DNA of 64,000 nt from Prorocentrum cordatum. Taxonomy: Eukaryota. A program made the position numbers and the translations under genes. Location: assembly GCA_963575745.1 (NCBI GenBank), contig CAUYUJ010000321.1, forward strand, positions 1 to 64,000, in the 5' to 3' direction. This document shows, in pieces, positions 3,156 through 62,120 of the stretch; within the stretch, counting starts at the first letter, position 1, and every line of letters starts with the position of its first letter. A model generated the notes under the pieces. That model worked only from the letters and a program-made list of their open reading frames with translations. It was not told the origin of the DNA and did not search any database.

Positions 3156-3193
<38 letters not shown>

Positions 3194-3631: not shown

Positions 3632-3796
3632 GATCATCATCGTCGTCGTAATCCTTATCAGCATCAGCATCATCATGAGCATCCTCATCACCATCATCAT
3701 CGTCATCAACATCACCATCACCATCACCATCATCATCATCATCATCCTCATCATCATCCTCATCATCATCATCATCTTCATCATCATTATCATCAC

Positions 3797-3859
<63 letters not shown>

Positions 3860-3860
3860 G
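3632..3860. repeat. (CAT)n microsatellite
   Basis: Direct observation. A shorter version lies at ~11358-11465. Confidence 0.95.
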
Positions 3861-4539
3861 TTGTTCATCCAACCGATTCCGCCACAATCCCCTTCTCCTC
3901 CTCATCATCCTCATCTTCTCCCCGTCATCTTCCTGATCCCCTCATGGTGGTCTTACTCACGACCATCATCCGCGGAACCCAAACCAGAATGATCATCATG
4001 ATAATCAGTATCATCATCATCATCACCAGCATCACCATCGCCAACATGGCAATCATGCTGACGATGATGCTGGGAGCAACTGCCGCCGACAATGCTGGGC
4101 TAGCACGGTGGCGGGACTTGCCGCAGGCACCTGAATAGCTGCGACGAGATGATGGCATCCTCCATTGCTCAGCTGTCTTTCGTGCTATGTATGAAAACGT
4201 CAAATATGGCCCGATATGATCCACGATAATCTTCGTCAGGCCCCTATGTGGCCCCCGGAGACGGCGCAATGAGGCCAAGCAAAACTCACAATGTCTTACA
4301 GAGGCCACTACGCAACCCCAAAACAGAACAATGTGTCCACGAAGGCTCAGCTGGAAAGAACACAAACCAAACCCAAAAGTAAATATGCAAACAAATTTAG
4401 TTCCGATAAGTATGCTATGTATGTAGAACCTGTGTGAAACGCACTGTTTGTTGTAGGATTCCCAATACATGAACGCGTACGAAAACGTAGGTCGACAAGC
4501 CGCGGGTGCCTGCTGGAGCCCCGTCGCGCCTTCCCCTTG

Positions 4540-4770
4540 TCTTAAGGTCAGGGTCTCAGGTTTAGGATTTGATGGCTATGGTCTTAGGGCTAGGGGGTCT
4601 TAGGGGGTGTGTATTAGAAATGGGGTCTGCGGGCTAGGGCAAACGGGTTATAGTTGCAGGTTTAGGGTATGAGGCGTATGGCCGTAGGATTAGCACATGA
4701 GGGCTGGGGCTTCCGGGCTAGGGCATTCGGCTTGGAGTTCTAGGGCTAGGGCCTTCGGGTTGGGGTCTGC
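4540..4770 (+). repeat. Degenerate telomere-like (TAGGG-rich) tract
   Basis: Repeated tttagg/ttaggg/ctaggg words. A shorter tract lies at ~1123-1165 and ~9191-9233. Confidence 0.45.
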
Positions 4771-5694
4771 ATCATCATCGCCATCATCAACAGGATCATT
4801 GTGATCACCATGAACAACCATCAGCACAATGACCAGCATACTCATCAATCATCAACATCGCTATCATCATCATCATTCGCCCAGCCGTCACCAGAGTCAT
4901 CATCAGCACCATAATCATATTTACCACGATAGACATCATCACTACCATCATCAGAGGCAGCATGACCGCTACCACCACCAACATCATCACCATCACCAGC
5001 ATAATCATCCGCATCCTCATCATCACAATCAACATCATCATCATCAGCATCACCATCATCGTCACGGTCGCCACATTTACAACCAGCACCCTCAGCATCA
5101 TTTTCAGCGTCATCCCGTACCAGGGCATGTGTGCGGCTCGCACGCGCTTAAACTATCTTAAATGCGCGTTGCATGCTGGCGGGCATGGCATTGGTAGAAT
5201 GAAGAAGATGGAGAGGATCAGGAGGGAGCGGAGAGGAAACGGGGGGTAAGGACAATAACGAGGGGCAAAGGATGAGGAGCAGCAGGCAATGAGACAAACA
5301 ATGAACCAGCCAGCCCAGACAAAAGTCCTCGCGTGGGCCTCACGCGGGCTGCAACAGCGCAGCTGCGCAACAGCAAGTTCGCGGCTCGCGGCGCTTTCAA
5401 AGTCAAAATTAAAACCCAGAACTGGTTCGAAGCTTCGAGCCTCGAAAAGGACTCGCTGGATCCTCCCCCCCCCGTCGCCCTCCCCACAGATCTCAAGCAA
5501 AATTGGAAGGCAACATGGGAAGCGGCCGTTGGAACGCAGAAGACACTGGGCAGCAGGAGCGGACTCTCCAGTCAGAACAGAACTCTGTCCAGCTCGAACT
5601 ATAATCCCATGGTCAAGTACTAGATGGCCGCCCCATACGCAGGGGTCATGACCCCCCCCAAGCTCTGCCACATAATTATCTCTGCGCCCCAGCC

Positions 5695-8281
5695 TCACGC
5701 ACAGGCGGTCGAAAGAATAACAGCGATGATGGCTGCGGTCATGGTCGGCTCTCCAACGCCTGAGGCACTCTCGATGTCCGGCGCCGGCGTCGGCGAGGGG
5801 GTCGACGGGGTGCATTCAAGCCACTTGCGCGTCTCGCCGGCCACGGTGGAGTCCAAGGCCTGGTTGCAGTTAGAGCCGCCCTGCACGTAGCACCACGTCT
5901 GGTTCCAGTCGGCCGTGGCGCTGCAGCCCTCGTACGACTCCATAACCCCGTCGGCATCGCCATCGTAGTTCCACTCCGTCATGCAGTTGCAGGAGCCGCA
6001 CTCGCGCCACTTGCGCGTCTCGCTGGCCACGGTGGAGTCCAGGGCCTGGTCACAATTGGAACCGCCCTGTACGTAGCACCAGCTCTGGTTCCAGTCCGCT
6101 GTGGCGCTGCAGCCCTCGTACGACTCCATAACCCCGTCGGCATCGCCATCGTAGTTCCACTCCGTCATGCCAGTTGCAGGAGCGCACTCGCGGCCACTTG
6201 CGTGTCTCGCGGCCACGGTGGAGTTCAGGCTTGGTTGCCAATTGGACGCCCTGACGTAGCACCAGCCTCTGGTTGCCGAATCGCGTGGCGCTGCAGCCCT
6301 CGTACGACTCGCCAGCGTAGTTCCACTCCGTCATGCAGTTGCAGGAGCCGCACTCGCGCCACTTCCGCGTCTCGCCGGCCACGGTGGAGTCCAGGGCTTG
6401 GTTGCAGTTGGAGCCGCCCTGCACGTAGCACCAACTCTGGTCCCAGTCGGCCGTGGCGCTGCAGCCCTCGTACGACTCCATGACCCCGTCGGCATCGCCA
6501 TCGTAGTTATCCTCTCCACTCGGTCATGCAGTTGCAGGAGCCGCACTCGCGCAACTTGCGCGCTCCGCCAGCCACGGTGAGTCCTGGGCCTGATTGCATT
6601 GGAGCCGCCCTGCAGTAGCCACAGTTTGGTCCAGTTCGGCCGTGGCGCTGCAGCCTCGTACGCCTCATAACCCGTCGGCATCGCCATCGTAGTTCCACTC
6701 CGTCATGCAGTTGCAGGAGCCGCACTCGCGCCACTTGCGCGTCTCGCCGGCCACGGTGGAGTTCAGGGCTTGGTTGCAATTGGAACCGCCCTGCACGTAG
6801 CACCAGCTCTGGTCCCAGTCCGCTGTGGCGCTGCAGCCCTCGTACGCCTCCATAACCCCGTCGGCATCGCCATCGTAGTTCCACTCCGTCATGCAGTTGC
6901 AGGAGCCGCACTCGCGCCACTTGCGCGTCTCGCCGGCCACAGTGGAGTTCAGGGCTTGGTTGCAATTGGAACCGCCCTGCACGTAGCACCAGCTCTGGTC
7001 CCAGTCCGCCGTGGCGCTGCAGCCCTCGTACGCCTCCATAACCCCGTCGCCATCGCCATCGTAGTTCCACTCCGTCATGCAGTTGCAGGAGCCGCACTCG
7101 CGCCACTTGCGCGTCTCGCCAGCCACGGTGGAATTCAGGTACTGGTTGCAATTGGAGCCGCCCTGCACGTAGCACCAGCTCTGGTCCCAGTCGGCCGTGG
7201 CGCTGCAGCCCTCGTACGACTCCATAACCCCGTCGGCATCGCCCATCGTTAGTTCACTCGTCATGCAGTTGCAGGAGCCGCACTCGCGCCACTTGCGCGT
7301 TCTCCCCAGCACGGTGGAGTCTGGGCCTGGTTGCAATTGGAGCCGCCGCACGTTTAGAGCACCAGCTCTGGTCCCAGTCGTCCGTGGCGCTGCAGCCTCG
7401 TACGCCTCCTATAACCGTAGGCATCGCATGTAGTTCCACTCCGTCATTCAGTTGCAGGAGGCCGCACTCGCGCACTTGCCTAGTCTCGCCAGCCACGGTA
7501 TGGGTCCGGGCCTGGTTGCAATGGGAGCCGCCCTGCACGTCGGCACCAGCTCTGGTCCAATCTGGCCGTGGCGATGCAGCTCCGTACGCCTCCATAAAAC
7601 CCGGTCGGCTCTGGCACGAGGGGAGGTCCCGTCATGCAGTGCAGGAGCCGCACTCGCGCCACTTGCGCGTCTCGCCGGCCACGGTGGAGTTCAGGGCCTG
7701 GTTGCAGTTGGAACCGCCCTGCACGTAGCACCAGCTCTGGTCCCAGTCCGCCGTGGCGCTGCAGCCCTCGTACGACTCCATAACCCCGTCGGCATCGCCA
7801 TCGTAGTTCCACTCCGTCATGCAGTTGCAGGAGCCGCATTCGCGCCACTTGCGCGTCTCGCCGGCCACGGTGGAGTTCTGGGCTTGGTTGCAATTGGAAC
7901 CGCCCTGTACGTAGCACCAGCTCTGGTTCCAGTCCGCTGTGGCGCTGCAGCCCTCGTACGACCCATAACCCCGTCGGCATCGCCATCGTAGTTCCACTCC
8001 GTCATGCAGTTGCAGGAGCCGCACTCGCGCCACTTGCGCGTCTCGCCGGCCACGGTGGAGTTCTGGGCTTGGTTGCAATTGGAACCGCCCTGCACGTAGC
8101 ACCAGCTCTGGTTCCAATCCGCCGTGGGGCTGCAGCCCTCGTACGCCTCCATAACCCCGTCGGCATCGCCATCGTAGGTCCACTCCGTCATGCAGTCGCA
8201 GTCGCTGTTTTCGCCGATCACGCAACTGACCAAGGCCGCGCAAAGGACGGCTGCGAACTCCATGACGATTGATTTGGCCAT
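5695..8281 (-). CDS. Secreted, probably GPI-anchored protein with 13 tandem 62-aa Cys/Trp modules (fibronectin-II/kringle-like spacing); frameshifted as assembled
   Basis: Hydrophobic N-terminus (MEFAAVLCAALVSCVIG). 186-nt repeats encode CNCMTEWNYDGDADGVMESYEGCSATADWDQSWCYVQGGSNCNQALNSTVAGETRKWRECGS. Pro/Ser/Thr linker (TPSTPSPTPAP) and hydrophobic C-tail (TMTAAIIAVILSTACA*). Most indels fall at ~6170-6670 and ~7240-7640. Confidence 0.85.
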
Positions 8282-11200
8282 CGGTAACCGCGCGCCTCTG
8301 GGGATTGCAAATTGGATCACGAGGCCAGCGTCGCAATTTTCTCGACTGAACCAAATTTGCTCGAGACGAAATGTCCACGAAGGCTTCTATGTACGCGTTT
8401 CGGGAGGCCTCAGGACAGCCATATGGCACAAATGCAATGCTCCTCATCGCGTTCCTCTTCACACCCCCTCGTCTTTCCACTCCTCCTCGTCCTGCTTTTC
8501 CTTCTGCCCCCCCTCACATCCTCAGAATGATCACATTCATCCTCATCCTCATCCTCGTCGTCGTCATCTTCATCTTGCTCCTCCAATGTTCCAAGGCCGC
8601 CCGAGGACGGCGTCAAGGAAACCGAAAAAGCAGGAGGCAGGACGGCGTTGTGTCAACCGAAGACAGCCACAAAACAACCACGTGACAATGTGATGCCACA
8701 ACAAACGTTGCTCAAACCGTCACTACATCATGACGCGTCGCATCGTTCGATGGGCACCCGTGCGCGGCTTGCTGACAGGGCCCCCCAACAGCAAGCGCCG
8801 CATGTTAACGCATTCGTGTTCTAACTCCTGCTCCTCCTCCTTCTCCATCTCCCCAGAGGACACGAAGTGTCACACATTACTGCCTACTCGTCGCCACCCA
8901 GAAAGCTGAGCTCGTACAATGGCGGGACTTGCCACAAGCAGCTGGATAACATCACAGCATCACCATAAGGGCAAAATTAAATATTGTGGCGGACAACAAC
9001 CACACCATCGCAAACAACCTGGTGTCTCCCCGCTTCCGGGACATCCAACGCTTTAATCCAGCGGGCAATGCTTTCACTGGGGCGCACAGCATATCTGCCG
9101 ACCCCCGCTTGCCAGGCGTGGGTGACAAGGCACGTGAGATGATTGGCTGCCTCCCTCCCCTGTCCCAGCCCGCTATGGTCCAGGATCAGGGCGTTAGGGT
9201 TAGGGTTCTAAGGTTAGGGCAGTAGCGGTAGGGTCTTTGGGTTCGGGTCTTGGGGACTTGTTCTGAGGGTTCGGATATTCCGACTGAGGTCTTACAAATC
9301 CGCAGATCTGGCGTGTGAGTTTCAAAGACCCTCAAATATAGCCTGAGCCTCAGTTATTGAGCTTCAGCTCTGCTGGGGGGGGGGCCGGGGGGGCTCTGCC
9401 AGGGTAGGGGGGGGGGAGGTCGAGTCGACTTTGGTTGCAAAATCGGAGCTCCAGCTCACTCCAGGTCGGCCCCTCGCCCCGGAGAACTCGAACCCGGGCT
9501 CATAGAAAACCCAGCGGCCGCCCAGACGGCCCAAGAGGGCCTTGAGTGGCCGAAAGGTCGCCCCAAGACGCTCAATATGTTCCTCAGACGGCTCCAGAAG
9601 CCTCCAACGTACCCTCCCGATACCTCCTAAGAGTGCCCAAAGACGGAACGTTTGCCCCACTCCTTTGTCTCGCGCGTGTTGCTCCGAACACTATCCGCCA
9701 CCGTGCCCCCTGGCGCGTATGGCGCGCTCGAATGCTAAGTGATGTCTGGCGCGGTTTCTGTAAGCTCTAAGGGTTCCCCCTTCGTGGCGCGCATCGCCCG
9801 CTCTTCTCGAGGCTCCCTGGGCTCCCTCACGCCTGGCGCACACTCTCCAAGGCGTCCAAGATGCCTTTCATGACAGCCAAGGCAAGCCAAGAAGGCCTCT
9901 GAGATGGCCCAAGAGCGTTCAAAGACGGAACAAGATAGACCCAATATGACCCACGATGGCCTCAGGACCGACCAAGAGGCCTGCAAGACGGCCCAAGGAG
10001 GTTCCCAAGAAAGTGGTGTTTGTCAATTGGTTTCCATTATGTTCGCATTGTGGTTTGTTTGAGTTTTCGTCGGCTCAAGACGACCCGGGAGGCTTTCAAG
10101 ACGGCCTCGCGACGGTCCAAAAGGGTCCTTGGAAAGCCCAGGACGGACTCAGCCAGGAGTGCCTGAAGCTGCCCCTAAGGGGCCTCTGGAGGGACTCCAG
10201 AGGACGTAAGAGGACCCCTGGACGGCCCAAGGCAGACTCACGACGGCCCAAGGGAAACCCCAGGGGCTCCAAGACTGCGCCTCGCGAGCAAAGACGCACC
10301 AACTGATATCCATGTGGTCCTGCAAAAGTGAAACGACGGTGTCACCTATGGTGGTGTTCCTCTTCGTTTTTGTCGTTGCCCTTCGCGTCCTCATCATCAT
10401 CACCGCCATGATCGTCATCGACGTCCTCATGATCACCACGATCACCTTCATAACCACAACCACCACAACCATCATCAGCAACATCATCAGCATCATCAAA
10501 ATCCGCCGGCCCCCTTGTGGGGCCACCAGGCTGTAGGCGCGAGGTTCGCAGTTTCCTGTACCAGTCGTAGGTTGTAGTTTCCAGTGTTACAGTTCTGCTT
10601 CTTGCTGGTTACTGTAACTAGATGATTGACCGCGCGAGGAGGGGGGGAGGCCCAAACGGGATTTTAGCACCCCCTGGGCGCGTTGTCTGAATTGCTGGGG
10701 GGGCTCGAAATCGACACCCCTCACGCAGATCCGCGGGGTCAGGGTCCAAAAACACATGGGATTTGCCACATTTCTGAAATTCGGTGCCACCCCTCACGCA
10801 GATCCGCGGGGTCAGGGTCCAAAAACACATGGGATTTGCCACATTTCTGAAATTCGGTGCCACCCCTCACGCAGATCCGCGGGGTCAGGGTCCAAAAACA
10901 CATGGGATTTGCCACATTTCTGAAATTCGGTGCCACCCCTCACGCAGATCCGCGGGGTCAGGGTCCAAAAACACAAGGGATTTGCCACATTTCTGAAATT
11001 CGGTGCCACCCCTCAAAAACGCAGATTTGCCATTTCTGAAATTCGGGGTCAGGGTCCAAAAACACAGGGGATTTGCCACATTTCTGAAATTCGGTGCCAC
11101 CCCTCACGCACATCCATCGGGGTAACCCAAACTGCGAGTATCCGGCCCTTCTTGTGTGACAAGCTCGTAAACCATACACGTCTTACCAATCGCCTGTGTG

Positions 11201-12105
11201 GTAACCCTCTTGTGATCAGTTGGTTTTGCCGATTGCGAATCGGCCTCGCATGAATTTCCGATACTGCTGCACGACAGCGCCAAAGCCTCATGACTTAGCT
11301 CTTCCATGGCCCATTCTCCGAGAGAGGGGGCCGGCGGCAGGGGGCGAAGCCCTTACGGATCATCATCGTCGTCGTAATCCTTATCAGCATCAGCATCATC
11401 ATGAGCATCCTCATCACCATCATCATCGTCATCAACATCACCATCACCATCATCATCATCATCATGTTGTTCATCCAACCGATTCCGCCACAATCCCCTT
11501 CTCCTCTTCATCATCCTCACCTTCTCCCCGTCATCTTCCTGATCCCCTCATGGTGGTCTTACTCACGACCATCATCCGCGGAACCCAAACCAGAATGATC
11601 ATCATGATAATCATTATCATCATCATCACCACAATCACCATCGCCAACATGGCAATCATGCTGACGATGATGCTGGGAGCAACTGCCGCCGACAATGCTG
11701 GGCTAGCGCGGTGGCGGGACTTGCCGCAGGCACCTGAATAGCTGCGACGAGATGATGGCATCCTCCATTGCTCAGCTGTCTTTCGTGCTATGTATGAAAA
11801 CGTCAAACATGGCCCGATATGATCCACGATAATCTTCGTCAGGCCCCTATGTGGCCCCCGGAGACGGCGCAATGAGGCCAAGCAAAACTCACAATGTCTT
11901 ACAGAGGCCACTACGCAACCCCAAAACAGAACAATGTGTCCACGAAGGCTCAGCTGGAAAGAACACAAACCAAACCCAAAAGTAAATATGCAAACAAATT
12001 TAGTTCAGATAATTATGCTATGTATGTAGAACCTGTGTGAAACGCACTGTTTGTTGTAAGATTCCCAATACCTGAACGCGTACGAAAACGTAGGTCGATA
12101 AGCCG
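8069..12105. repeat. Tandem segmental duplication, copy 2 (partner 1-4502)
   Basis: Same sequence as 1-4502 with shorter 73-bp satellite and (CAT)n tracts. Confidence 0.95.
10715..11110. repeat. 73-bp minisatellite (second array, ~5 units, one rearranged)
   Basis: Same unit as 2640-3360. Confidence 0.95.
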
Positions 12106-33640: not shown

Positions 33641-34623
33641 AGCCAGGCAGGAGGAGGACGCGACCGAAGTGCTCTTTGCAAAACGAATACCCAGACGATC
33701 GGGAACCATCGGGAGGGGGTTCCTGTTCGAGACTCCCCTCGAGGTGACAATGTGAGTGCGCAGTGGTGTGCGACAGCAAGAGCAAACGCGTGCGTGCACC
33801 CGACATGAAGATGGTGTGTGCGAGATGATTACGATGATGGTGAGGACAAGAAGGGGTGGGATCTCCTGCGCGGTGTTCAGAAAAAAGCACGAGCCCTGCT
33901 TTGCATGTGGAGAATGATGAACGTGACTTTCCTTGATGGGTGCACATGATCCACATGATGACACAGATGGTGATGGTGATGACGATGATGATGATGCTGC
34001 TGCTGCTGATGATGATGTTGACGATGTTGATGATGAGTGTGATGATGATTATGATGCTGGCGATGCTGGTTATGACTGTGTTGATGACGCTGGTAATGAT
34101 GATTTTGTTCACACAGCATTGGCTCCGATGTCTGAGCGAGATCAGCTTGGCAGCAAAAAGTTCGGCGCGAAACTCATTCATTAAACTCGAAGCGGTGTCC
34201 CTGCTCGCGGCGGTCGTGCGGCCTCCACCCTATGTGACGGCCTCGATTGCCAACGGGCTTGCAAAAGCCCTAGCCTGAGACCCACGACCTCTGAGCGCGA
34301 AGAAGCCGAGGGGGTCAAATCAAGGGGGGGCGGTTACTTCTGAGCTCGATGCCATTGCCGGGCCTGCTCTAAAACTCGCGTGCTCAAAACCACATTGTCA
34401 AAAACACGGCTACCTGGGAAAACGCCCCGAGAAGCCAAATACATAGCTATCATCCTCAGGTCCGACACAGGGGGGGGAGGAGGAGGAGGGTGCTCCTCAG
34501 CGGTAGCCGTCAGTCTTACCGAAGATGATCGTGCGCGGCTGGAAGACGAGATATCCATCAGATTTGAAGTAGCCGCCATTCTGCCGGTGTCGCACTGGTC
34601 GCCGCTGCCACCCCAGCCGGCGT

Positions 34624-35290
34624 TTACTGCAGTAGCTGTTCCACCCATTCCTGTAGTTCCCTCTCCACGTGCGTGGCTGGCGCTCTCCCGTACTTGCGCT
34701 TCGCCCCCGTCGTCCTGAGCGATTCCATCAAGTGGTTGCGAAACTGCGTGCCCCTCACTGCCAGCGCGAGGCGCTTCTTCTCCTTCTCGTACATACGATC
34801 TACCTTGCAAAAGCGAACCAATTCTGACTTCTGCTCGCCGTTGTAGCCGTCGTAGCCCGCGCACATCTTTTGCACCACCTGCTTCAAAGGGCCGCCCAAA
34901 GCCAGAGCCAATACCGCTGCCAGTAGTCCTCCCATCGCGTATATCTGTGGTGGGCCCATGTCGTGGTTTTTTCCCTTTATGCTTTGTTATTTTTCCAGGC
35001 GCAGCCGTCTGCTCCTGAATGCGAAGGGTAATCGGGCCGTCGCCCCTGAGGATAAGAGTGTCGAGAATCACGCTGCTCATGTCCCTGCTCTGCTGTGCGC
35101 ACCGAAGGAGCTGTTTGACGATCAGGCACATCATCAGCATCTTGGTGCGGCGTGGGAGTTGGGTTTTTGCCGCCTCCATGGTCTTCTTGTTTCCTTCGGC
35201 ATCGCCCTCCTGTGTGCGTTGGCGCTGGCTCCGCTGAAATCCCCCATCCATCGGCGCGTCTAGGTTGCTTGTCTGTAGGAGAGCTGGCAT
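34624..35290 (-). pseudogene. Frameshifted ORF of unknown function, probably LINE-associated (ORF1-like)
   Basis: Joined frames give ...LIVKQLLRCAQQSRDMSSVILDT.../GPPQIYAMGGLL...LVRFCKVDRMY...KYGRAPATHVERELQEWVEQLLQ*. Co-oriented and just downstream of LINE B ORF2. Confidence 0.55.
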
Positions 35291-35657
35291 AATCCAAGAT
35301 CGGGTGCGGCGTCGGTAAGCGAGACCACCGATGGCGTTCTCACAAGGCGGCCAGGTCCGAAAAGGCTGCGTCTCATATTGAACATGTTAGATCAGAAACC
35401 ATTTGTAGTGGCCATTTCATACTATTCCTTTCCATTTTGCACCGGCCCTGGGCATAAGCAAAGACTAGATGATTTTGCGCGCACAACTTGCTTTTCAAAA
35501 CCGTGTAACAACTCGGGCACTGGTTCGTGATCACGCTGCTCGGGATCGCGAAGCGAAGTCTATGTCTAGCTGCTTGATGGGTAGTACGCTGCCGATGGCT
35601 GGGGGAAGTATGATCGCAATTCGTCCCAGTTTCGTGACCGATAAGTTCGCATTTGTA

Positions 35658-37803
35658 TTATTTGGGGTTCGCGTCTATCATGTGGCTCGGTTGGTCATAG
35701 AAGCGGGCCCATATGCTGCTTCCTGGGGCGTGGGCTGCTGCTCTTAGGATAGCTGGATCGACTCGTAGAAATTCTCGTTCGGCTTCGGAGTTCGGGGTGA
35801 GGAGGCCCTTCCACGATTCGTTTGATCGGGCCCAGGCCCCCCAGAAGGTCTCGGCGCCACTGATGTCCCTGAAGAGGTTCAAGTCCCGAGCGAACTGATG
35901 GGCCCATGGGTTCGCTTTAGCTTCTAACCTCCCGTGTTCATCTAGCGTCGGGGGCTCGCTCGGGATACGTCCCAAGATAGCGACCAGGAGTTTGTCGGTG
36001 TGCAACACGGTGACGACACATCGACCGCAAACATTTAACTCGTCTGACCGCAAGCTCTGCTCTTACTGGGAGTATCTTCCAATGCTTAAGAACCTCGACG
36101 TTACTCATGGCGGTCATGCGTGAGTCCGCGCGTACCGTCTTAGCTCTGCCTTGCGCAAGGGCACAGGAGTATTTTACCGAATGGGAGCCCAGCTTTTTTT
36201 CTTCGGTTTTCGTCAAAACGAACGCTTCGAGCCCTGAAACTCAAGCCTCCAGCACCTTCCCCAAGAAAATGTCTCGTCTGGGCTCCCAGAGCCCTCTGTC
36301 ATCCCAGAACTTCCCAAGTTGACACCATCCCACTGTCATAGACCGAATACGGATCGAGACCTCTAACTGATTGCTGGCCGTCATCGTGTATCTAGCTCCC
36401 AAGCGTCGCGCATCTGGAACTACCTGTCCCTGGGAAGAGGGGCGTATTTCCTGGAGCTTCCGATTCTCGATATGCGGTCCGAGAGCTGGGACGATGTCCT
36501 CGTTTGATTTACTCTGTGCAAAATGCCAGCGTTTGAATATATAATCGAACTGCTTGTCGCCCGATTGAATCATCCCCATTGCATCCTCGGCCTTGCCTGG
36601 CGGGCATAGTCGCTTCTTCAGTAGATCACCCGCGAGGCCCGAGAGGGATGCGTCCTGGTGAAATCCCTCGATCCCGTCATACATGACTATGGGGTCCTGT
36701 GTAATAGTTCGCCAGTCTGAGATACAATCACGATAAACTCCAGTGAACTGCTTCGGCGCCTCGCTTGAACCTTGTGGGCCTCCGTTGCGCTGTAGAAAAG
36801 CTTCCTCTTTGTCGCCCCCTGGGGTGAGTACTATGCTGTTCACCAATCTCTGATGTGCTAGAGCGCGTAAGTCTTCTCGAACGAGCTGGTGCGAAATACA
36901 AAGAAGACCTCCTGTGCGAGGGCGAAGACATGCGTTGGAAAGGTCGTGTAGCCAATTGGCGTGGTGCTGCTTCTGCCGTCTAAGTGACCACCCAGTGCGT
37001 CTCTGAACCAAGATTGCCCCCTCACGTCGTCGATGTGGTAGAAATCCGTGCCAGTGACTTGGCATAGCGTTTGTCCATGCTTCCCTTTTGTCCCCCCAGC
37101 CGTCGGGCACGCCATGGAAACTCTTCCATATCGCGTCGGAGAGGTGAATGATGCGCTGACTATCCACCCTGTGCTTCTGATTCCGCTTGTCGAGAAGGAC
37201 GCCCTCCGTCATGCTGCTCTTCGTCGGTCGCTGATTGGCCCGCAAGCAGTGCACCAAGACCTCCACGAAGAGTGATCGAGCCTTTGTATACGCCAATGCA
37301 GCTTCCATGACGTTCTGGCGTCCGTCTCTTGCGCGGCCTCACTCATTCTCAGGCTGGGGGGTGCGTTCTGACCGCCAGTTTGGGGCCTCGCCACCTGTTG
37401 ACCCGCTGGGCCTGTTAGCGCGGTGGTCGAAACTGTCCAAGGACTGGCCATGGGGCTGGGCATTCCCGAGACTTCCCCGCCTAAGTCCAGCAAACTTCCT
37501 CGGCGATTGGCGGAAGCCGAAACCTGAGTAGGATACAGAGACTCCTCCCATTGTAGGTCGTCGTGGTCTGCGAGGGGGTCGTCATCCATGTCGAAGAATT
37601 CGAAAGGGCCCGCCTCCGGGTCGCCCAGGTTTGTCCGAGCTCGGCCCTGGGGATCTTGAGAGATATCCATCTGATCTGAAGTAGCCTCCACAAAGCTGGC
37701 GTCAATACTGGGCGCCGCTGCCGCGTTTACTGCAATAGCTGTGTCTTCCACTCCTGTAGCTCTGACAAAGTGCATCGGGGGTAGTCTGACATCTGGTCGG
37801 CGT

Positions 37804-37842
<39 letters not shown>

Positions 37843-40798
37843 AGAGTCGGCACCCGCTGCCGCCCAGCGCCCAGGGGGGCTGAGGCGGCGCGCTGCGCGT
37901 GCTCTCGGGTGCTAAAAGACTCATGCCTTCAGCCTCCTCAGGAGGCTCACCATATCCCACTCCGCCCTGCGCTGTCAAGTGACTTGGAGAGACATGTGGG
38001 GCCCAGGCTCATCAGCGCGATCTCGACGGGGACGCTCCATTTAGTTGTGTTTCTGCGTTTCTTCGCATTGCGTAGGCGATAAAGGAGCTGTTGGAGTAGA
38101 ACGCCCGCTGCCACTTCCATCGTACTGTTGCGCATTTTGCGAAAATCGTCCGCCTGAGGTGCCAAAAACTCGTTAATCTCCTTTTGCAAGTCAACCCGCG
38201 TTGCCTCCACGCCTCCGCCTGGTCCTGGTTGAGCGATATGTGTTTGCAGTTCTGGTAGAGAAGGTTTGTAGCTTGGTAAATGACAATATTTTCTGCGTTT
38301 AACTCCCATTGCTTTCCCCGCCAACTGTCGTGCAATACGACGCACATCAGCTGCGTGCCCTAGTCTTCTGGATTCCACCAGGTCCCCGTAGAGATGCTTG
38401 CGGCATGCTGCGTGCACACGTCTTGCAGCACGACGTATATGATACGCAAGGCTGCGGATCTCCACTTCCAGGTAATCCAGGTATTATTTGTGTCATCCTT
38501 GAACTAGTCCGTGATCCTGCCGCTGGTGGGCAAGATGATCTCGGTACTTCCGTCGTTCGTGGAGTTGCTCGAGCCCAACGTCACGCCATTGTTTTACTTC
38601 TGCATATGCTGATGAGCGGGCAACACGCACCCATACTCATAAGGAAGCCCGAGCGAGGAGGACGGACGAGAGGTGAACCGATGAATGGAGCACAAGAGCG
38701 GTCAGGAAGGATTGCGCACTCGGGGATTGCAGGAGGACGGAGGGCGGAGAAGGCGACGGGGGAGAGTTAGGGACAGGCGAAGCGAAAAGAAGATCCGAAG
38801 GCGGGCGATCGGGCGAGGGGGATAGGGGAGCAGAGAGGGACAGCGGGATACCTAGAGAGGGTGGGAGGGACAGGAAGACCGTTTTGCGCGCAATCGGAAG
38901 GCTGGTTGCCCGCCTCGTTCCGCCCCCCCCCCACCCGCGCCACCCCCCGCCGACCTGGCGAGCGGGGGCGTCGCAGCGGGGGGCAAGGGCCAACCGCCGC
39001 AAGTAGCGAATCGCGGGGCCCCGATTTGCAAATTTTGGGGCTGGAAATTCCAAGGGCCTATGGGTGCGCGTTGTCGGATGGGGCCCCCGCCCGAGAAACG
39101 GCGCGCCTCGGCGTCCGACAACGCGCGCCCATACCCATAGGACATCCTCAAATCCGGAGTCGCGAATCAGCAAATTCCGAGGTCGCCCTCCAGCCCACCG
39201 CCGACCCTCTCCGGCTCGCTGGGTCGGCGCGGGCGCGCCACGACCTGAGGAAAGGCGTGGAGAAGAAGGCGGCTCGCCATCCGACCACGCGCCAGACCCC
39301 GCCCCCATGTCCTTTCTATTCCGTCCCTCGCCATCCCGCTGCCGCCCTCCCGGCATCCCAGCTCACCCCACGCGAGCGCCCCCCTTCGCATCATCTTCTC
39401 ACTGCACCCTGTCCCTGATTCTCTATTGTCGTCTTCCTGGCCCTCCGTCTTCCACGCATCCCCGACTGCATCATCCTTCCACTCCCCGTTCGTTTTCCTT
39501 TTTCCTCTTTGCCCCATCCCTTGCCCTCCTCCCTCGGGACCCCCCTATGGGTATGTGTGTGTGTTGTTCGTTCATGATGCATGATCTGGTCGACTGCCTC
39601 GTTCGCCAAAATGGCCCCGGGCTGTCTCGAGCAGGGTTGTTGCCCACAGGTCGTTATCATAATCCGCGTGGGCCAACTCTGAGTACTCCGCTAGCTGATT
39701 CGTTATGCTTGCCATTCGGTTATATAGAGCGCGGTGAAAATCGAGTCGACCCACGCCGCTCTGAAGTGCTTGTGCCATCTTCGTATAATCCCAGCGAGGA
39801 CGTGGTTTGTGATGAACATACGTTGGCATCACGTAGTCGATGGTAAAAAATAAGGGTAGGTGGTCTCGAGGTTTTGAGTCTGGAATCATTTGCAACTGCC
39901 GTCCTCGCTGCCAGGCTACCGTACACGTTTGCACTCCATCTAGCAGGTTTGTCGGGATAATGGCCACGTCGATCGTGCTGGTCTCGCCGTTCATGCCAAA
40001 GTAGGTTGGCCCTGCCGATGGGTGATAAGTGCTCAAACCAGCCATGTCGTAAGAGAAAAGAATATCATGTAGTCGTTGTCCTGCTTGTCCGCTTTTCTTC
40101 AAGTGATAAGTTCCAAAATTGCATTCATCTGGGTCGCACTTGGTGTCCGAAGTCTGCCCCAATCCAAATCCTGAAGTAATATCAAATCCTCAAATTGGCG
40201 TGCATCGTGAGGGCGCGCTCGAAATACGCTGTTGAATGTAGCACATCGTCATACTGATGCTCTTCATCTGCGCCTTCATCGCGGCGCCCGTCTCGCACAA
40301 GGGTGGAGGGTAGCCCGATATCGCCATTATGTCGAAAGACCCCGATCTGATCCGTACATCTCCTGCTCGTCCCTCCAATCCCTTTGGCCCAGGCTGAATT
40401 GCTACGATATGTTGCCGTCTGAGCCGTCGTCCCATCACGATGCACGTGCCCGCGCAATTCGTCACATATGGTGGCCGCTTCCACCCAAAATGAATCGCTG
40501 CCCGTCGCTCAGGTATGTTCTGCACATGATAAACTCTATCCTGCCACTCTCGGACCCTCGTGCCATTCAGTATCAGCAGATCAACGCCCATCACCTTTGC
40601 GATCTCCTCTAGGCGGGAAGTCTGAATAAGAGACAATGGGTTGTAAACCGCCCCTCGTAAGAGAAACCTCATTGACCCCCTCCACGGCTTGCATTCACTC
40701 GTCGGGGGCGGGTGGGGGGTAGCGGGAAGGCGCGAGTGTCTACGGGGCCTTCTGAACGCTGCCTGCTGCTTCGCTTGGGCCGAGGTGGCAGCTTGGCA
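35658..40798 (-). mobile_element. Degenerate non-LTR retrotransposon (LINE B): EEP endonuclease plus RT, with two insertions
   Basis: EN motifs AVYNPLSL, GRAG, SGYPPP, PTYFG, STIDVAII, RDHLPL. RT motifs QRIIHL, WHGFLPHRRREGAIL, HDLSNA, GGPQGS, LAGD (decayed xADD), RRLGA. Many stops and frameshifts. Confidence 0.85.
38613..39574. mobile_element. Non-autonomous TIR DNA element, ~32-bp TIRs, 3-bp TSD (TGA), inserted in LINE B ORF2
   Basis: TGAGCGGGCAACACGCACCCATACTCATAAGG versus reverse complement TGAACGAACAACACACACACATACCCATAGGG. TGA on both sides. Removal restores the frame ...PDHAS|AYAEVKQW... Confidence 0.9.
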
Positions 40799-40899
40799 AT
40801 GATAGCGATGATGATGATGACGACGACGACGATGATGATGATGACGACAATGATGACGATGATGATGATGATGATGATGATTTTTGAAGCCCGCGCACC

Positions 40900-43800
40900 C
40901 CCGGTGGCGACCCCATTGTTTCTCAGTTCCGTCCAGGCCTTGCAAATGGCAGCGCGCCGTCTCGAATGGAGCCTCAGGCGCGCGCGAAGCGCCTGCTCCA
41001 CATCGGCACTGCTGCCAGTTCGCACTGGCGAGTGCGCGCGAACAAAAGCATCGCAGCAGCTTGCGTATCTGAGCATTGCAGAGGGAGAAGGGGCGAGGGA
41101 GGAGGTGAGGATCAATTCCGAGAACCATTCATCATCACCAGGAGCATGGAAAGGACCCAGATGGGATATACAGAGAGCACGGAGCCGCTGACAGATAGAA
41201 TCGTGCTTAAGATCGCCATAATCAACACCTGCAGGGGCATCACAGCCGAAGACACAGCCTCTAGGGGCACAGTGGAATCTGGAGGTCGCGCAAATACCCC
41301 GACACGAAATACGAAGGACAACACTCCCAAGATACGCCTGTGATTTCTTAATGACAGAGCGGATCCTCTGGATCAGGAGAGCAACCGTGCCGGGGGAAAT
41401 CCCAGGACGCCACGCCTGAAGACGTCTCAGTAAACCGGTTTCGGGGCAGTCCTTGAGGGCGACGGGCAGGGAAAAGCGAAGCTTACGATAAAAGTAACGC
41501 TGAATACTCTTGCTGTTAATGTCCTGCGGCAACGAAGCCTACATGTCGGCATAAATTGTCGCCGTCTGCTGGAAAGCCATCAAGAGACTCCTCTGCCACC
41601 ATCCCCCCCTTCCCCTTGCAAAAATCATCTCGCCCCCCTCCCTCGCTTGCTTGAGGTGCTCGAGCGACGACTGCAGCACAGAGCACTTGGCGAGCAAACG
41701 TAACTGACAAGCGTGACCAATACTCTGCAGGCAGGGAAACTCGATGCTGCTGCCGAGCGCACGCAATCCAGTGAGCATGCGCTAAGAGAAACTGAACCGC
41801 GGGGCGGCGTTCAGCAACTGCATCGCACGGTCATGACTGGCAAGCAGAGCAGGTGAGGGAGGATAACATTGCAGGGTAAATTGGAGCTTGGAGAGGCAGA
41901 GCGACTGGTATGATGAAATAGACACTGGAAGACCAAAGCCCTGCTGTCGAACTGCACGATATCGCCCAACAAAGGCTGGAATAACTTCATCCCAAGCATA
42001 GTTTGCAGCCTCAGGGCCTATATGGATGCCTAAGTACTAACAGTGTTTCACGATGCACAGGAGCGAGAAGGGTTCCCGAGGTCTTTGCACACGCGTTGGA
42101 GCCACGTCACTTTCGCATCACCAACGAGGAGGATAACACACATCTTAAGATTAAGTTTCAAGCCGACAGCCTCCTCCAATAGGGTAATAAGCTGAGGAAG
42201 AGTAGGAAGATCAGAGAGGACATTGTTGAGCATAAAGAGCCAGTCGTCAGCATAGGCTAACATACGATGCACGAAACGACCACCGCGCCAGACAAGCCAA
42301 CGGGTTATGGGGTCAGTCGCCAGGGCGAATAAAACCATTGAGGCAGGGCCCCCTTGCCGAACACCACGCTGGATCAGTATTTTAGTTAGCCTCCTCCCCC
42401 CAAGGGTAATCCACGCCGAATTGACATCATGCAGGCGACTGAACAACGAGATTACTTCACGTGGGATATCGAGACGGGATAGCACCATGAGAACCCAATG
42501 TACAAAGATCGAGGGGAACGCGGCCGAGAAGTCAGTGAGGAATTCGGCCGCATGCTTCTGCCCAGTGCCCCACATCTCCAGCCCCCACGCCTTCGCCTCC
42601 ACAATGTTAGCTAACATGTCCCCCCCCTCTGATCCCTCCCTTCTGACGCTCATGTACGGCGGCGGCCGCCACTTCATTCGGCGGCTGAGCGAAGGCGAGC
42701 GGCAGGGCTTTGCAATCCGTGTCGGAGAGAGCAAGCGGTCCGGTACAGTCGGCTGCGCGAAATGCACCAGCAGCCGCGTCATTCGGGCTCGTGCCCTTTG
42801 GAAGAAATACGAGCAACATCTCCTGCATGCTAGACGGCATGGTGGTGCTGAAAGAGTCGTGCATAGATTCAAATACATCATAGAGTATGTCAAAGGCATC
42901 ACTATCCTGCCAACATGAATATGGTATGCCGTCTGGACCAGGAGCAGCGTTGCGTCGTGCAAGTAAATATTGTGAAAGCTAGGCCTGGTTAAGAACCGAG
43001 TAGGCGTAATCCCAAGATCCTGAACAGGCGGAACAAACCCAAGAATTTCAGCCCAAAGCTCACGATCAACAGGAGTGGCCTTGAAGACCTCAGACCAATG
43101 GTCCGCCAGGACCTTTCCAGACGCCTCCAGGGACCCACAGGGGGAACCATCAGGATCCAGGACCCCAACAAGGTAAACTCGACGACGAAGTTTAGACCAG
43201 AGTTCACGTTTCCGACAAAATCGTTCAATATGATGCTGGGTTCAAGCTTCTTCCGAAATATCTTCAGCTACGCAGGCTTCCAGCCCGTGGAGCCCATCGT
43301 CAATCGCAGCCTGCTGCAGCAAACGCTCGCGCTCAAACAACTGCGGGAGGTCGCTACAGGCCTCGGTTTCGACGTCAAAGAAGGGGAGGAGGGCAGCATA
43401 AGTACGGAGGGCGGTAATGCACATATGAAACTTGTGATAACGTAGACCACGGAGCGCATGCATGGTCCAGTAATGTTTTCCCCATGAGTGCGCGCAGGAC
43501 GATGTTTGATACGTATGCGAGCGGGCTTAACTTGTTCATGACATATACATTTAGCAGCAGCATGACGTTTAAAGGGGCCCCACTCAGCAGGGATCCCCAT
43601 GAGATGCTGGCGGGCGAGGGCACGATACTCGGGTGAGCGCGCAATAACATTCGGGATGACACGCGAGCCTTCCCATGGAACGTGACGCTGGAAGGTGGCC
43701 ACGAGCGGGCGATGATCGGATGGTGTCTTGCCTCCAAGTGAGCCCCAGACTTTGGCCTGTGTGGTGAGGTCCTGCAACATGGCACTGGGCATGTCTGAGT

Positions 43801-44668
43801 ACAACCGATCAAGCCGCGAGGAGTGCGTCTGCCTGGCGTTGTTCCACTCTTGCCGAGTGGGTCCATCCTGCACAAATTCTATCCAGCTGCCGCAGAGCTG
43901 GTTAAACGCGTCGTGATGCAATCGATCACCACTGTGCCATGTACGACCGTCATATCCCATCCTTCCTTCCTCTTCTAAGGCGAAATTCCAGTCCCCCCCC
44001 CCGATCAAGTTGAAAGAGACAGTGGCCGGCGGCAGGGCAGCTAAAATGGCGGACAGGATGCGGCGATAGAGCGGAGTGCCATCACTTGTGTTGGGCATAT
44101 GACAATTGACGATACACATCATACCATGCTCACCAATGCAGCGAGAGAGGACACGACCAGGGATGATAGGAACATGACGAATGGACTGGAAGTGAAAACA
44201 AAACTGCTCATGAAGGACAGTGAGGACACCACCAGTGTTGGCTTCCGCACGCGAAGAAATACATACGCTGCTCCCACGAAGCTGACACTTGATCTCCTCT
44301 GCATCCCCAAGGTGCCCATGGGTCTCCTGAGCGCACACAATACTGTAGCGTTTAGCTAGAGACAAGAGTTGTGAACATCGACGCGAAGCTCGACCATCCC
44401 CACCTCCCACAGCCGCAAATAAACCTTGAGTGTTCCATGTTACGTAAGATATCGCAGTACTCGGTAAGAACGGAGACGGAGTAGCCGACAACGAAGACGT
44501 CGAGGAGTCGAAGGAGGAGGAGGAGGAGGACGAAGACGAATTGCTAGAGCTACCCGAATTCGAAGAGGAAGAGCTAGAGCTACTCGAATTGGAACTGCTA
44601 CTATGTTGCGTGCTGCCAGGGCCGTCTCTAGACACCTCAAAAGGGACGGCGGGCGGCGACCTTGGCAA
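40900..44668 (-). pseudogene. LINE A ORF2: APE endonuclease, reverse transcriptase, Cys/His knuckle (frameshifted)
   Basis: EN motifs VTWNTQGL, CAQETH, GGDWNF, SRLDRLY, SDHRPL. RT motifs VFLPKG, PLALSDTDCK, DFSAAFPSI, GVRQGGPAS, YADD (42243-42254), GLKLNLK, YLGIHIG. Knuckle CVFGC...KHDSIC. Confidence 0.9.
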
Positions 44669-45626
44669 CCTGAATCAGTGCATCGGCGTGAGCCTCAAGG
44701 CCAAACTCAGGAAAAGCGGCCTCCTCCAGGTCCACGAGGATGTCTTCGCTGACGTCACTGGCAGCGAGGTGGGCGATTCGCGCGGGGTCCTCGGCCGACC
44801 TGAGGATGAAAACGTCGCCGCCGAGGCCGTTCTATCCTACCTGGAGCTGCGTGCTGGCCAAGAGCGTCTCCGCCTTGTTGCGGAGCTTGCCCATGGCGGG
44901 GAACAGGCGCCTGCTCTTCAAATCAAGATCGCACCGAAGTTTGAGATGAAGCGGCTGTCCGCCGCGAGGGTCCACGAAAGTCGTACCCTGATCGAAATTA
45001 GATAAGAAATTAGTGGCTGTGAGAGCGTCACCGAACTCAAAGACAGCTTTGCGATTCATGTCGAAAGCCTTGGCGATGCACTTGTTGTGGTCCGCTATGG
45101 GCATGGCCTGGTTGCGCACCTGCTCCGCGGCACGCCAAAGTGTGGAGGCCATCATCGGTCTTGGGAAGCCCAGCAGCACAAGCCTACATGCACCTTCCTG
45201 TTGATTGCGACTGCGAGAGGCCGGTGCCCACACCGATGAGCTGGCTGTGGTCGAACGGGTTGATTCGGGACTGCGCAGCCGACGACGAGAGCCTGGTGGG
45301 TACTCAGCAGCAGGCGGGCGTTCAGAAAGCTTTTTCAGCGACTCCCCGATGTTCGCGACCGTGTTCTCGAGCTTGATGACTCGATCAGCACGTTGTGATA
45401 ACCCTGTCGCACCTCGCATGCTGGAGTCCGTGTCTTCTTCGAGGGCGTCGAGACGTGCTTCTAGGATGTCCATGCGAGCTGCTGTGGCATTGACGTCTTC
45501 ACGCAATGAGGTAATGCCGCCTCGCATCTCCTCACCCAGCGATGGCATGCGGGCCTCGACGTTCGTCATGGCCACGATGAGCGAGGCGGCCCATGGTGGG
45601 GTGCCCTCGGTGGCCATGGCGGCCAT
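44637..45626 (-). CDS. LINE A ORF1 (coiled coil plus RRM-like), one in-frame stop at 44832
   Basis: Heptads LREDVNATAARMDILEARLDALEE and RVIKLENTVANIGESLKKL, then RLVLLGFPRP...AVFEFGD. The frame continues past the TAG to TGA at 44637-44639. Confidence 0.75.
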
Positions 45627-45781
45627 GGGGCGGCTGTGTGATGGGCGAAGGCCTGGACGGAAGGATGCCGAGCCGCAAAAGCGGGCGCAGTGTGCACCTC
45701 CAAGCAGCTCGTGCCTGAATGCTGTGGAGTCGCCAAGACTAATCAGGTTGCCTCGCAACTTCGTTGCTTCCCCCGTTTAGT

Positions 45782-45802
45782 CTTGAGCCAAATGGCTACG
45801 GC
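45782..45802 (-). other. Genomic copy of dinoflagellate spliced leader (DinoSL)
   Basis: The minus strand reads GCCGTAGCCATTTGGCTCAAG versus consensus DCCGTAGCCATTTTGGCTCAAG (one T fewer). Confidence 0.95.
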
Positions 45803-45859
<57 letters not shown>

Positions 45860-46976
45860 CGACAGGAGGAGTGGGTGACGGGTTCCTGCGCGGGGTGTCC
45901 AAAGAAAACAAGAACCCACCTTAAAATGTGGGGAAACACACTACCACCAATTGCCCAATTGATGTACGTCGCTATCGTAGCGAAGCGCGTAGAATGCGGA
46001 AAATAAACAAGATACTGGCACAGTTCCGTTCCGGACCTCTCCATGGCGCCTGGTCAACAGGATTCCGAGGCGAATCCAGCCGTCGCAGCGAGGACCACCT
46101 AGAATGCCCAACAAAACGCGAAATCGAGGGCGGGCAATCAGCATTGGTATGTTAATTCCCCCTGAGAGAAGGCATGCGGTCAGGCCGCAGAACGTGAGAA
46201 GAGACGCGACAAGCAGGCGATTCCGTGACAGCCACGGACTAGTGTTTCGGGTCACTTCGTTTTTCCTCCTCCTCCTCCTCCTCCTCCTCCTCTTTCATAG
46301 CCTCTCCCTCCCTGCTGCGTCGTGCTCGCTGCCGAAATGCGCTGCCTCTGCGTTCTCGCCATTCCATGAATTCTGCTGGCCCGGGAGGGATCCGATGGGG
46401 GGGTGGCGATTGGGCACGGCAAGGAAGGGAGTGGAGAAACCAAAAGATACCGATACCGCTGCTCCCTGGACTTCCCCCGGGGCGCGTTCGGACCAAGATT
46501 TCAGAGCGACTCCAGCGGTGGCGACGAGGGCCTCCCGGGAAGCCCAGAGAGGGGAAAGCGGGCGGGGGGGGGCAGAGGTACGGGCGCCTCCTCCTCCTCC
46601 GAGGGAGGTGGGGCCGAGCGGCTGCGGCGAGGGGGCAGGGCAGGGACCGGGGGGGGGGGGGCGAGCGGCCGCGGCGAGGAGGGGCGGAGGGCCGAGCGGC
46701 CGCAGCAGGGAGGCGGGGGCGGGAAGGGGGGGCGGGCGAGCGGCCGCGGCGAGGGCGGGAGGAGGGCCGAGCGCCCGGCGCGCCGCCCGCGCGCCGCGGG
46801 GAGCTGCCGTGCGCCGGGGTGGGGGGGGGGCGGGGCACGCACGGCGTGGCTTTCCGCCGCGCGGGGGGGGGGGGCGGCGGGGGGGGGGGGAGAGCGGGGG
46901 CGGCGGCGCCGGCAGGGGAGGAAGGCAGGATCTGGACAGAGGCAGAATCGAGTCAAGATCGGACCGATTGAAATCG

Positions 46977-60949: not shown

Positions 60950-61858
60950 GTCCTCCCCCCTCCTCCGCAACATCGTCCTCCCCCCCCCCCCCCCCCGCAT
61001 TCCCTATCCAACTCCTCCTCCTCCTCCCCCTCCTCCCTCCTCCTCCTCCTCCTCCTCCTCCTCCTACTCTCCTCCTCCTCAGTCTCCTCCTCCTCCTCCT
61101 CCTCCTCCTCCTCCTTCGCCTCCTCCTTCGCCTCCTCCTCCTCCTCCTCCTCCTCCTCGACCTCCGCTTCAATCATGCTCCACTTCTTTACCCTCCTATC
61201 CCCATCCTCCTTCTCCTCCTTCTCCTCCTCCTACTCCTCCTACTTCTCATTATCCTCCTTCCTCATCCCCTGTCCTGCTCGGGCCCTCCTCTTCTGGGCA
61301 CCTGGTCTTGCAGACCGTGGAAGACTGCCACAGGACTCCCTCCCCCTCCTCCTCGTCCTCCTCATCCTGCAACTGCTCATGCTCCTCCGTCCCCCTCTCG
61401 CCAACACCGTTCACCTCCGTCCTCCCCTCCGTCCTCCTCCTCCGTCCTCCTCCGTCCTCCCTCCTCCTCCGTCCTGTTCCCTCCTCCTCCTCCTCCGTCC
61501 TCCTCGTCGCCACCGCTCACCCTCCCCGCTCGCCTCACACCCAGGGGCCCGAGGAGAGCAGGGAGGCTCCGCGAGCTCTCCCTCTCTCTGCCCCTCCTGC
61601 CCCGCCTCCCTCGCCTATGCCGCACCCGTTTATGTCGCCCTCCTCCTCCCTCCTCCTCCTCCTCCTCCTCCTCCTCCTCCTCCTCCTCCTCCTTCTCCTC
61701 CTCCTCCCGATGATCATCCTTCTCCTCCGCCTCGGCCTCGCCGTCCTTCCTCATCCCTCACCCTCGTTCTCCTCCCCCTCCTCCTCCTCCTCCTCCTCCT
61801 CCTCCTCCTCCTCCTCCTCCTCCTCCTCCTCCTCCTCCTCCTCATCATCATCATCATC

Positions 61859-61941
<83 letters not shown>

Positions 61942-62120
61942 GCATCATCATCATCATCATCAGCAGCATCAGCATCAGCATCAGCATCATCATCATCAGC
62001 ATCATCATCACCACCACCACCATCATCCACATCATCTTCCTCTTCCTCCTCAGCGTCCTCTCCGTCCTTGTCACCCTACCCACACCGTCCTCCTCAATAT
62101 CCTCATCATGATCTTCCAAC
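60950..62120. repeat. (CCT)n and (CAT)n low-complexity tract
   Basis: Direct observation. Confidence 0.95.

Follow-up and report, generated by a model that had tools for sequence, protein, structure and literature searches.

Do the long interspersed nuclear elements (LINEs) of dinoflagellates land in microsatellites that are already present, or do they make the microsatellites found at their ends? This question is raised by a 64-kb stretch of Prorocentrum cordatum DNA (contig CAUYUJ010000321.1, hereafter the window), in which two LINEs, referred to as LINE A and LINE B, lie head to tail on one strand and are bounded by tracts of (TCA)n. An earlier, sequence-only reading of the window had proposed that (TCA)n was either the insertion target or a self-made tail. 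The evidence assembled here favours, with a probability of roughly 0.5, insertion of both elements into a pre-existing (TCA)n-rich tract over tails made by the elements themselves. The target half of the proposal gains support from a LINE-free paralogue of the flanking unit, from (TCA)n-like tracts without a LINE and from a third element in another contig, and the pure tail reading keeps some probability.

Layout of the locus

The features on which the argument rests are listed below in the order in which the minus strand reads. Coordinates are those of the window, and features lie on the minus strand unless stated otherwise.

45860..45935, minus strand: U-box 1, directly upstream of (TCA)19 and paralogous to 33824-33914 (blastn and alignment A1)
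45803..45859, minus strand: pure (TCA)19, abutting the LINE A 5' end (TRF, 19 copies, 100% matches, and sequence)
45782..45802, minus strand: 21-mer resembling the dinoflagellate spliced leader (DinoSL), GCCGTAGCCATTTGGCTCAAG, forming the exact LINE A 5' end (sole match in the window, 0.01 expected)
40881..45802, minus strand: LINE A, 4922 nt, full length but decayed (RVT_1 match, frames of the open reading frames (ORFs) and translations)
40807..40880, minus strand: middle (TCA)n-like tract at the A/B boundary, with TCG, TTG and GCT variants (TRF, 25 copies, 88% matches, and sequence)
34103..40806, minus strand: decayed and composite LINE B block without a defined 5' end (ORFs and profiles of relatives)
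33966..34102, minus strand: degenerate period-3 (TCA)n-like tract 3' of LINE B (TRF, 46 copies, 69% matches)
33817..33914, minus strand: U-box 2 (33914-33855) and, after it, a short TCA-like tract of its own (33854-33817); no LINE adjoins (tract at a 70% threshold)

The minus-strand order is (TCA)19, LINE A, AAAAA, the middle tract, the LINE B block, AAAA and the degenerate tract. Each LINE is flanked by the same microsatellite on both sides, LINE A by (TCA)19 and the middle tract, and LINE B by the middle tract and the 3' tract. LINE A has the terminal sequence GGGCTTCAAAAA and ends in AAAAA at 40885-40881, LINE B has the terminal sequence GTGTGAACAAAA and ends in AAAA at 34106-34103, and the sequence CAAAA(A)TCATCAT is common to both 3' junctions. 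The earlier reading had described this layout correctly: all of its parts were found nearly at the positions given, including TCA repeats on the 5' sides ((TCA)19 before A, the middle tract before the B block), and the junctions that it had placed at 40882 and ~34104 with a shared cAAAA(A)TCATCAT signature proved to be wrong by at most one base.

Association of the LINEs with (TCA)n

(TCA)n-like tracts were counted on both strands of the whole 64 kb, at a match of at least 80% per 30 nt. Just three (272 nt) were present on the minus strand, 3/3 of them at LINE borders, and 14 (1041 nt) were present on the plus strand. Because no minus-strand tract of this kind lies anywhere in the 64 kb but at a LINE border, the association exceeds chance, and a chance origin is unlikely. 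As a rough estimate, the odds that two independent insertions both fall within about 2% of the window, the share taken up by such tracts, are roughly 4 in 10,000; the locus was singled out as striking, a selection that weakens this estimate but does not remove it. No similarity was detectable between LINE A and LINE B, which therefore record two independent events at one tract, and the two are probably unrelated LINEs of the apurinic/apyrimidinic endonuclease (APE) type. The junction phase that they share is weak evidence, as two of the three repeat phases read alike after an A run. The tracts are also asymmetric in position, the 14 on the plus strand lying near the window ends (1-12000 and 61800-62100) and the three on the minus strand at the LINEs (33900-45900).

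It had further been suggested that LINE tails explain the abundance of (CAT)n in this window. That idea fails, because 14/17 tracts are on the other strand, because no A or B sequence is present there and because oligo(A) ends of the element type are lacking. No other LINE A or LINE B sequence was found in the window by blastn or tblastn, and none of the other microsatellites in the window abuts an oligo-A/T run of at least 4 leading into an element end; just the two LINE junctions do. Two cases were set aside, a TTTT preceding (TCC)n at 46264 and an A3 following it.

Target or tail: the U-box unit and its LINE-free paralogue

The approximately 95 nt that precede (TCA)19 match 33914-33824 (72% over 97 nt in blastn, E 5.5e-6). 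The second copy of this unit, U-box 2, is located 50 nt downstream of the LINE B 3' tract. The repeat that follows the U-box unit appears to be a host feature and no product of LINE A or LINE B, because the paralogue has its own TCA-like tract with no LINE. A 12-mer within the U-box was rejected as evidence of this relationship (2 matches vs 0.81 expected, with 16/100 shuffles reaching 2), and the 97-nt blastn match counts instead.

Insertion into a pre-existing tract is favoured on several grounds, of which the U-box paralogue with its TCA-like tract is one. In addition, the capped 5' end of LINE A abuts the repeat, a junction that a 3' tail cannot explain. Finally, the LINE B 3' tract resembles LINE-free degenerate tracts of the plus strand, being 76-80% identical over 140-162 nt to those at 3707-3868 and 61864-62003.

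Spliced-leader junctions in other contigs

The canonical 21-mer leader was found in 20 stretches of contigs filed under bacterial metagenome-assembled genomes (MAGs). Nine sites in eight of these stretches are followed by GT and look like spliced-leader (SL) RNA genes, and two sites with too little upstream sequence were left out. A perfect microsatellite abuts the leader in 3/10 of the remaining sites, namely (TCA)10 in L141, (AG)n in L142 and (GACA)6 in L144; at a fourth site, L143, the leader abuts an imperfect (GT)n. There was no microsatellite at two extra sites, where the leader was allowed up to two mismatches in five MAGs, or at three GC-rich loci from the viral collection. Informative leader 5' junctions at a microsatellite thus amount to 3/15, or 4/15 if L143 is counted. 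L141 is chimeric after about 100 nt, continuing into bacterial genes at a GC content of 0.40, and just its repeat-leader junction counts.

The most informative of these contigs is L142, 9096 bp from another dinoflagellate filed under a bacterial MAG, which was picked up by its leader sequence without regard to repeats. Its order is (AGAGAGAC)15, the leader at 117-137, a 383-aa ORF, a 2536-aa ORF, GGGTAAAAAA and (AG)35. The larger ORF matches Exo_endo_phos (E 5e-9), RVT_1 (E 5.4e-11) and RNase_H (E 1.3e-5), and the element ends in A6. The contig holds no microsatellites besides its two flanks, both of which are (AG)n repeats; one GAC interruption is found on the downstream side too. Its protein is unrelated to LINE A and LINE B by BLAST, and L142 represents a third, unrelated LINE with the same architecture in a different repeat. 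Another LINE contig, G001:C59, comprises an internal part of its element and neither end, and is uninformative on flanks.

Weighing of the alternatives

Of the rival explanations, the one that survives best, rather unlikely as it is, holds that the repeats are tails borne by the elements. LINE A, LINE B and perhaps a third element ending in the U-box would each carry (UCA)n after the oligo(A), through read-through or slippage of the reverse transcriptase (RT), and new copies would prime in older tails to build a head-to-tail array. Every tract does lie 3' of an element-like end (U-box, A, B), the junction CAAAA(A)TCATCAT is common to two unrelated families, and LINEs with repeat tails are well known, as exemplified by UnaL2 and the I factor. 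The tracts are also less pure (100%, 88%, 69%) the older the element upstream of them appears to be, as expected for such tails. However, no oligo(A) precedes the repeat at the ends of U-box 1 and U-box 2, the U-box 2 tract is short with no element after it, and plus-strand tracts of like make-up occur without an adjoining element end. In L142, the same kind of repeat stands upstream and downstream, and the GAC interruption is found on the 3' side too. Even with element-borne tails, new copies would land in (TCA)n, so that the repeat would still be the target.

Several points weigh against insertion into a pre-existing tract, the gradient of tract purity being one. The U-box could itself represent the 3'-terminal part of a third, (TCA)n-tailed retroelement, and homology of the sequences beyond the two U-box tracts was not significant (p about 0.06). 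A candidate 12-nt target duplication at LINE B (ATCATTGCCAAGC vs ATCATTACCAGC) lies in repeat-like sequence and proves nothing. The evidence for LINE A and LINE B comes from one locus, and any family-wide specificity for (TCA)n would be hypothetical. The enrichment of microsatellites at leader junctions lies far above the background of 0.26% in 10 MAG contigs and is borderline or weak if the true density is ~7%; the chance of 3/16 junctions is 0.10 at p = 0.07 and 0.004 at p = 0.02.

A stricter form of targeting, in which the endonucleases of LINE A and LINE B cut (TGA)n/(TCA)n specifically, in the manner of Kibi, Koshi, Waldo and Mino, and essentially all copies lie in (TCA)n, is unlikely. 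Such specificity would fit the presence of two families in one tract, where they share orientation and junction phase, and it would also fit L141 with (TCA)10 directly before its leader. Nevertheless, it would be unparsimonious for two unrelated families to have the same rare specificity; the repeats used in the parallel cases are (AG)n, (GACA)n and (GT)n-like, and one copy each of A and B was seen. In the favoured reading, dinoflagellate LINEs would probably lean towards microsatellites in general and follow no strict (TCA)n code; such a leaning is likelier than a (TCA)n-specific endonuclease because unrelated elements use different repeats.

Coincidence or passive accumulation, by which insertions survive in a tolerant microsatellite patch of repeat-packed neutral DNA, is very unlikely: microsatellites of period up to 6 make up 7.2% of the window, Drosophila Waldo-A and Waldo-B are thought to gather passively near CA repeats according to the part of PMC3812793 consulted, and choosing the locus for its striking look inflates its apparent rarity, but both insertions share an orientation, have clean A4-5/TCA junctions and lie within a single (TCA)n tract of the minus strand, and L142, found regardless of repeats, has the same layout.

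A possible order of events

If the tract was the target, LINEs A and B would have integrated separately, in the same orientation, into one (TCA)n-rich tract after the U-box unit, and the three tracts would be pieces of the target DNA. LINE A would have been copied from a full-length RNA capped by the spliced leader, and LINE B would be an older, composite element. At each insertion, the bottom strand, (TGA)n, may have been nicked so as to leave a 3' T. This T end could then pair with a short oligo(A) at the 3' end of the RNA and prime reverse transcription, which would place A4-5 directly before TCATCA. The cDNA, completed at the cap, would be joined upstream inside the same repeat, leading to the repeat-leader 5' junction. 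In LINE A, LINE B and L142, the A run can be taken to be followed first by an A contributed by the target and then by T or G; on this view, the bottom strand, (TGA)n or (CT)n, would have had a terminal T. Pairing of such an end, left by a nick or a break, with a short oligo(A) would in general give clean A4-6/repeat junctions. A hybrid course is also conceivable, in which part of the 3' tract may additionally be copied from read-through RNA.

A leaning towards microsatellites could arise from annealing at T-ended nicks, from structure-prone or break-prone DNA, or from the accessibility of repeat DNA. A wider proposal, tentative and on balance doubtful, is that in dinoflagellates reverse-transcribed RNAs capped by the spliced leader, those of LINEs and retrogenes alike, insert preferentially into microsatellites with many different motifs, with a T-ended nick or break priming on very short oligo(A). 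Were this so, retrocopies would pile up head to tail in repeats and spare tandem gene arrays, and the unusual microsatellite load of dinoflagellates would be linked to massive retroposition.

Structure of LINE A

The recognisable parts of LINE A are as follows.

about 45626-44832, minus strand: ORF1 (ORF frames and translation)
about 44440-43700, minus strand: APE-like region (motifs in the translation)
43241-42048, minus strand: RT (RVT_1)

The RT was matched by RVT_1 with E 2.4e-9 and 37.7 bits vs a Pfam cut-off of 29.6. The translation also shows the endonuclease motifs WN.QG, QETH, GDWN and SDHRP. These gave a weak match to the endonuclease part of profile A2, an alignment of LINE B and its relatives (E 0.004, probability only 8.5); the top match of the region in PDB is an AP endonuclease, again weak (E 0.28), and a Pfam scan of the region was without a match. 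Decay is evident in two frameshifts and at least two in-frame stops. The leader-like head is one T short of the usual DinoSL form. Both flanks are (TCA)n, so that any target-site duplication would be invisible.

In the protein collection, the C-terminus of LINE A matches just three proteins, all transcript-derived and from one EukProt set (59-86% identity). One of them ends ...GAF, about where LINE A ends; this is a protein alone and is uninformative on the tail. The EukProt set from which the three relatives (P0001-P0003) come is named for the green alga Pyramimonas. Either the set contains transcripts of a dinoflagellate-type LINE by contamination or mislabelling, or the LINE A family is wider than dinoflagellates. 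A search of viral contigs with the LINE A C-terminus gave no match. A 256-nt X3 contig that matches the leader and 17 nt of repeat has 6 mismatches in 39 nt and, being too weak, was not used.

Structure of LINE B

The LINE B block is composite and not one clean element, as its parts show.

about 40668-39578, minus strand: APE piece (profile columns 79-259, 99.6%, E 1.3e-24)
38601..39577, minus strand: 977-bp insertion of two adjacent ~450-bp units with terminal inverted repeats (X1 contigs; inverted repeats I3, I4 and I7)
38483-37947, minus strand: linker (profile columns 297-456, 99.3%, E 1.2e-20)
37310..37950, minus strand: extra ~640 nt at the linker/RT boundary, absent from distant relatives (profile columns)
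37338-35658, minus strand: RT (274 relatives of the RT ORF)
35657-35373, minus strand: zinc-finger region (ORF)
34986-34624, minus strand: small downstream ORF of 120 aa (no Pfam match)

LINE B is probably a real but divergent APE-type LINE, because its RT relatives carry the expected motifs, the N-terminal and linker profiles fit, and L1 endonucleases are matched. LINE B itself has no Pfam match. The RT ORF has 274 relatives at E up to 0.001 in the representative library, and alignment A2 (27 relatives and LINE B) has a consensus with the RT motifs LDK..GK, NAF.S and FADD. RVT_1 was found in 1/12 of the LINE B relatives scanned, with E 4.8e-5 and below the Pfam cut-off. Of the Atlas matches, 26/30 fall in one cluster set, and the clusters listed carry RVT_1 on 15-72% of their members. 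The N-terminal profile of the relatives retrieves L1 endonuclease structures first in PDB (E 0.005), and this retrieval of L1-type endonucleases is the sole pointer to a clade. One protein of the protein collection matches the LINE B RT, at 26% identity. Searches with the RT gave one 17-residue match, taken as spurious, in metagenome contigs and no match in viral contigs. A leader relic was sought at the LINE B 5' end, where the best stretch was no better than random windows (p 0.11-0.25).

Downstream of the RT and zinc-finger ORF there is, besides the 120-aa ORF, a second ORF of ~75 aa (34334-34560, minus strand). Pfam scans gave no match for either, the latter having been scanned within the frame 34334-35386.

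The 977-bp insertion is absent from three contigs of public run X1 that join 38600 to 39578, with 5 letters fitting either side. Its terminal repeats read CAACACGC.CCCATA..., with ATGCA at both borders, and its left part is a high-copy repeat in run X1. Within the extra ~640 nt there are a G37 run at 37841-37805 and a duplicate of the final part of the small ORF with the following 60 nt (37762-37660, like 34659-34548; blastn 73% over 113 nt). This duplicate also includes the start of the next ORF (ATS.QMDIS vs MAATSNLMDIS at 34560). One X1 contig spans 37332-37754, and other LINE B copies therefore share the extra sequence, which may be an internal duplication, the result of a template switch or a nested fragment.

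The two families are multi-copy and diverged, because run X1 holds 352 contigs at 80% identity or more to the region, 260 of them under 95%. This comparison covers the region apart from the repeats at 37796-37850, 40798-40890 and 44501-44544 and the junction flanks.

Other features of the window and of the leader sites

The window is DNA of a dinoflagellate type, with a GC content of 0.59. It contains a segmental duplication (about 1882-3938 and 9950-11540), tandem arrays of a 73-bp unit and of a 186-bp unit (x 12.9, at 5820-8201), a G113 run at 3141-3253 and very long (ACC)n, (TGT)n and (CTC)n tracts.

At one leader site, L010, the 21-mer has the same 19 nt (TTTTGCTTGCAGGCGTGAG) on both sides, a pattern suggestive of an insertion of the leader by itself that duplicated its target. 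The exact 21-nt leader core was also found at 139 sites (L022-L140) in AT-rich contigs of giant-virus MAGs, often many per contig. An AAA[AT]TGA box lies within 70 nt upstream in 126/139 of these, mostly as AAAATTGA about 40-45 nt before the leader, and the leaders are followed by different gene starts. The arrangement reads as though giant viruses encode the host leader at the head of their own transcription units; no description of it was found in a literature search.

Comparison with known systems

Repeat tails made from the template are a feature of 'stringent' LINEs such as UnaL2, with (TGTAA)n, and of the I factor, with (TAA)n, in which the 5' flank is unrelated DNA. The present locus resembles these in that a short repeat directly follows the 3' end of the element. 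It differs in that the same repeat also abuts the capped 5' end of LINE A and is part of a host unit with a LINE-free paralogue. A repeat at the 3' end only, as in LINEs with self-made tails, was found neither in LINE A nor in L142.

Dinoflagellate genomes have been shaped by retroposition on a very large scale, and the landing sites of the retrocopies are hardly described. Slamovits and Keeling are said to have reported, in 2008, dinoflagellate retrocopies headed by a relict DinoSL. LINE A shares this feature, with the leader at its exact 5' end. The L142 element likewise begins exactly with the leader, and each of the two was therefore copied from trans-spliced RNA. The word 'microsatellite' has 0 occurrences in the full text, as available, of PMC5585692 (Song et al. 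2017) and PMC6050394, which deal with DinoSL-headed retrocopies, and a search with limited coverage of the literature yielded no paper connecting microsatellites with the LINEs or retrogenes of dinoflagellates. An association of retrocopy junctions with microsatellites would be a novel observation.

Among LINEs that target microsatellites, those of the APE type include Kibi (TC)n and Koshi (TTC)n of fish and Waldo (ACAY)n and Mino (AC)n of insects, as given in the part of PMC3812793 consulted, with which the list in the sequence-only reading agrees; the portion of PMC4640811 available assigns APE-type microsatellite-specific LINEs to the clades Tx1 and R1. Elements with a restriction-like endonuclease are represented in the same parts of these two sources by Dong (TAA)n and Togen (TG)n. 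As with Dong and Togen, microsatellite DNA would serve here as a safe multicopy target; LINE A, LINE B and L142, unlike these two, show APE-type features. The closer likeness is to Kibi, Koshi, Waldo and Mino, since here too a single microsatellite stands on either side of an APE-type LINE and the junction is clean, and the (TC)n of Kibi is the (AG)n dinucleotide repeat of L142 read on the other strand. The differences lie in the dinoflagellate host, in the spliced-leader-capped 5' end of LINE A and in the several repeat motifs apparently used by unrelated elements; the likeness is one of single copies. (TCA)n is not among the targets named in the parts of PMC3812793 and PMC4640811 consulted. 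A preference of LINEs and retrogenes for microsatellites would amount to a simple insertion-site rule in a genome without nucleosomes, and with it (TCA)n and a new eukaryotic supergroup would join the few known cases of microsatellite-targeting LINEs. A genome-wide count could reveal a general rule for the landing sites of dinoflagellate retrocopies.

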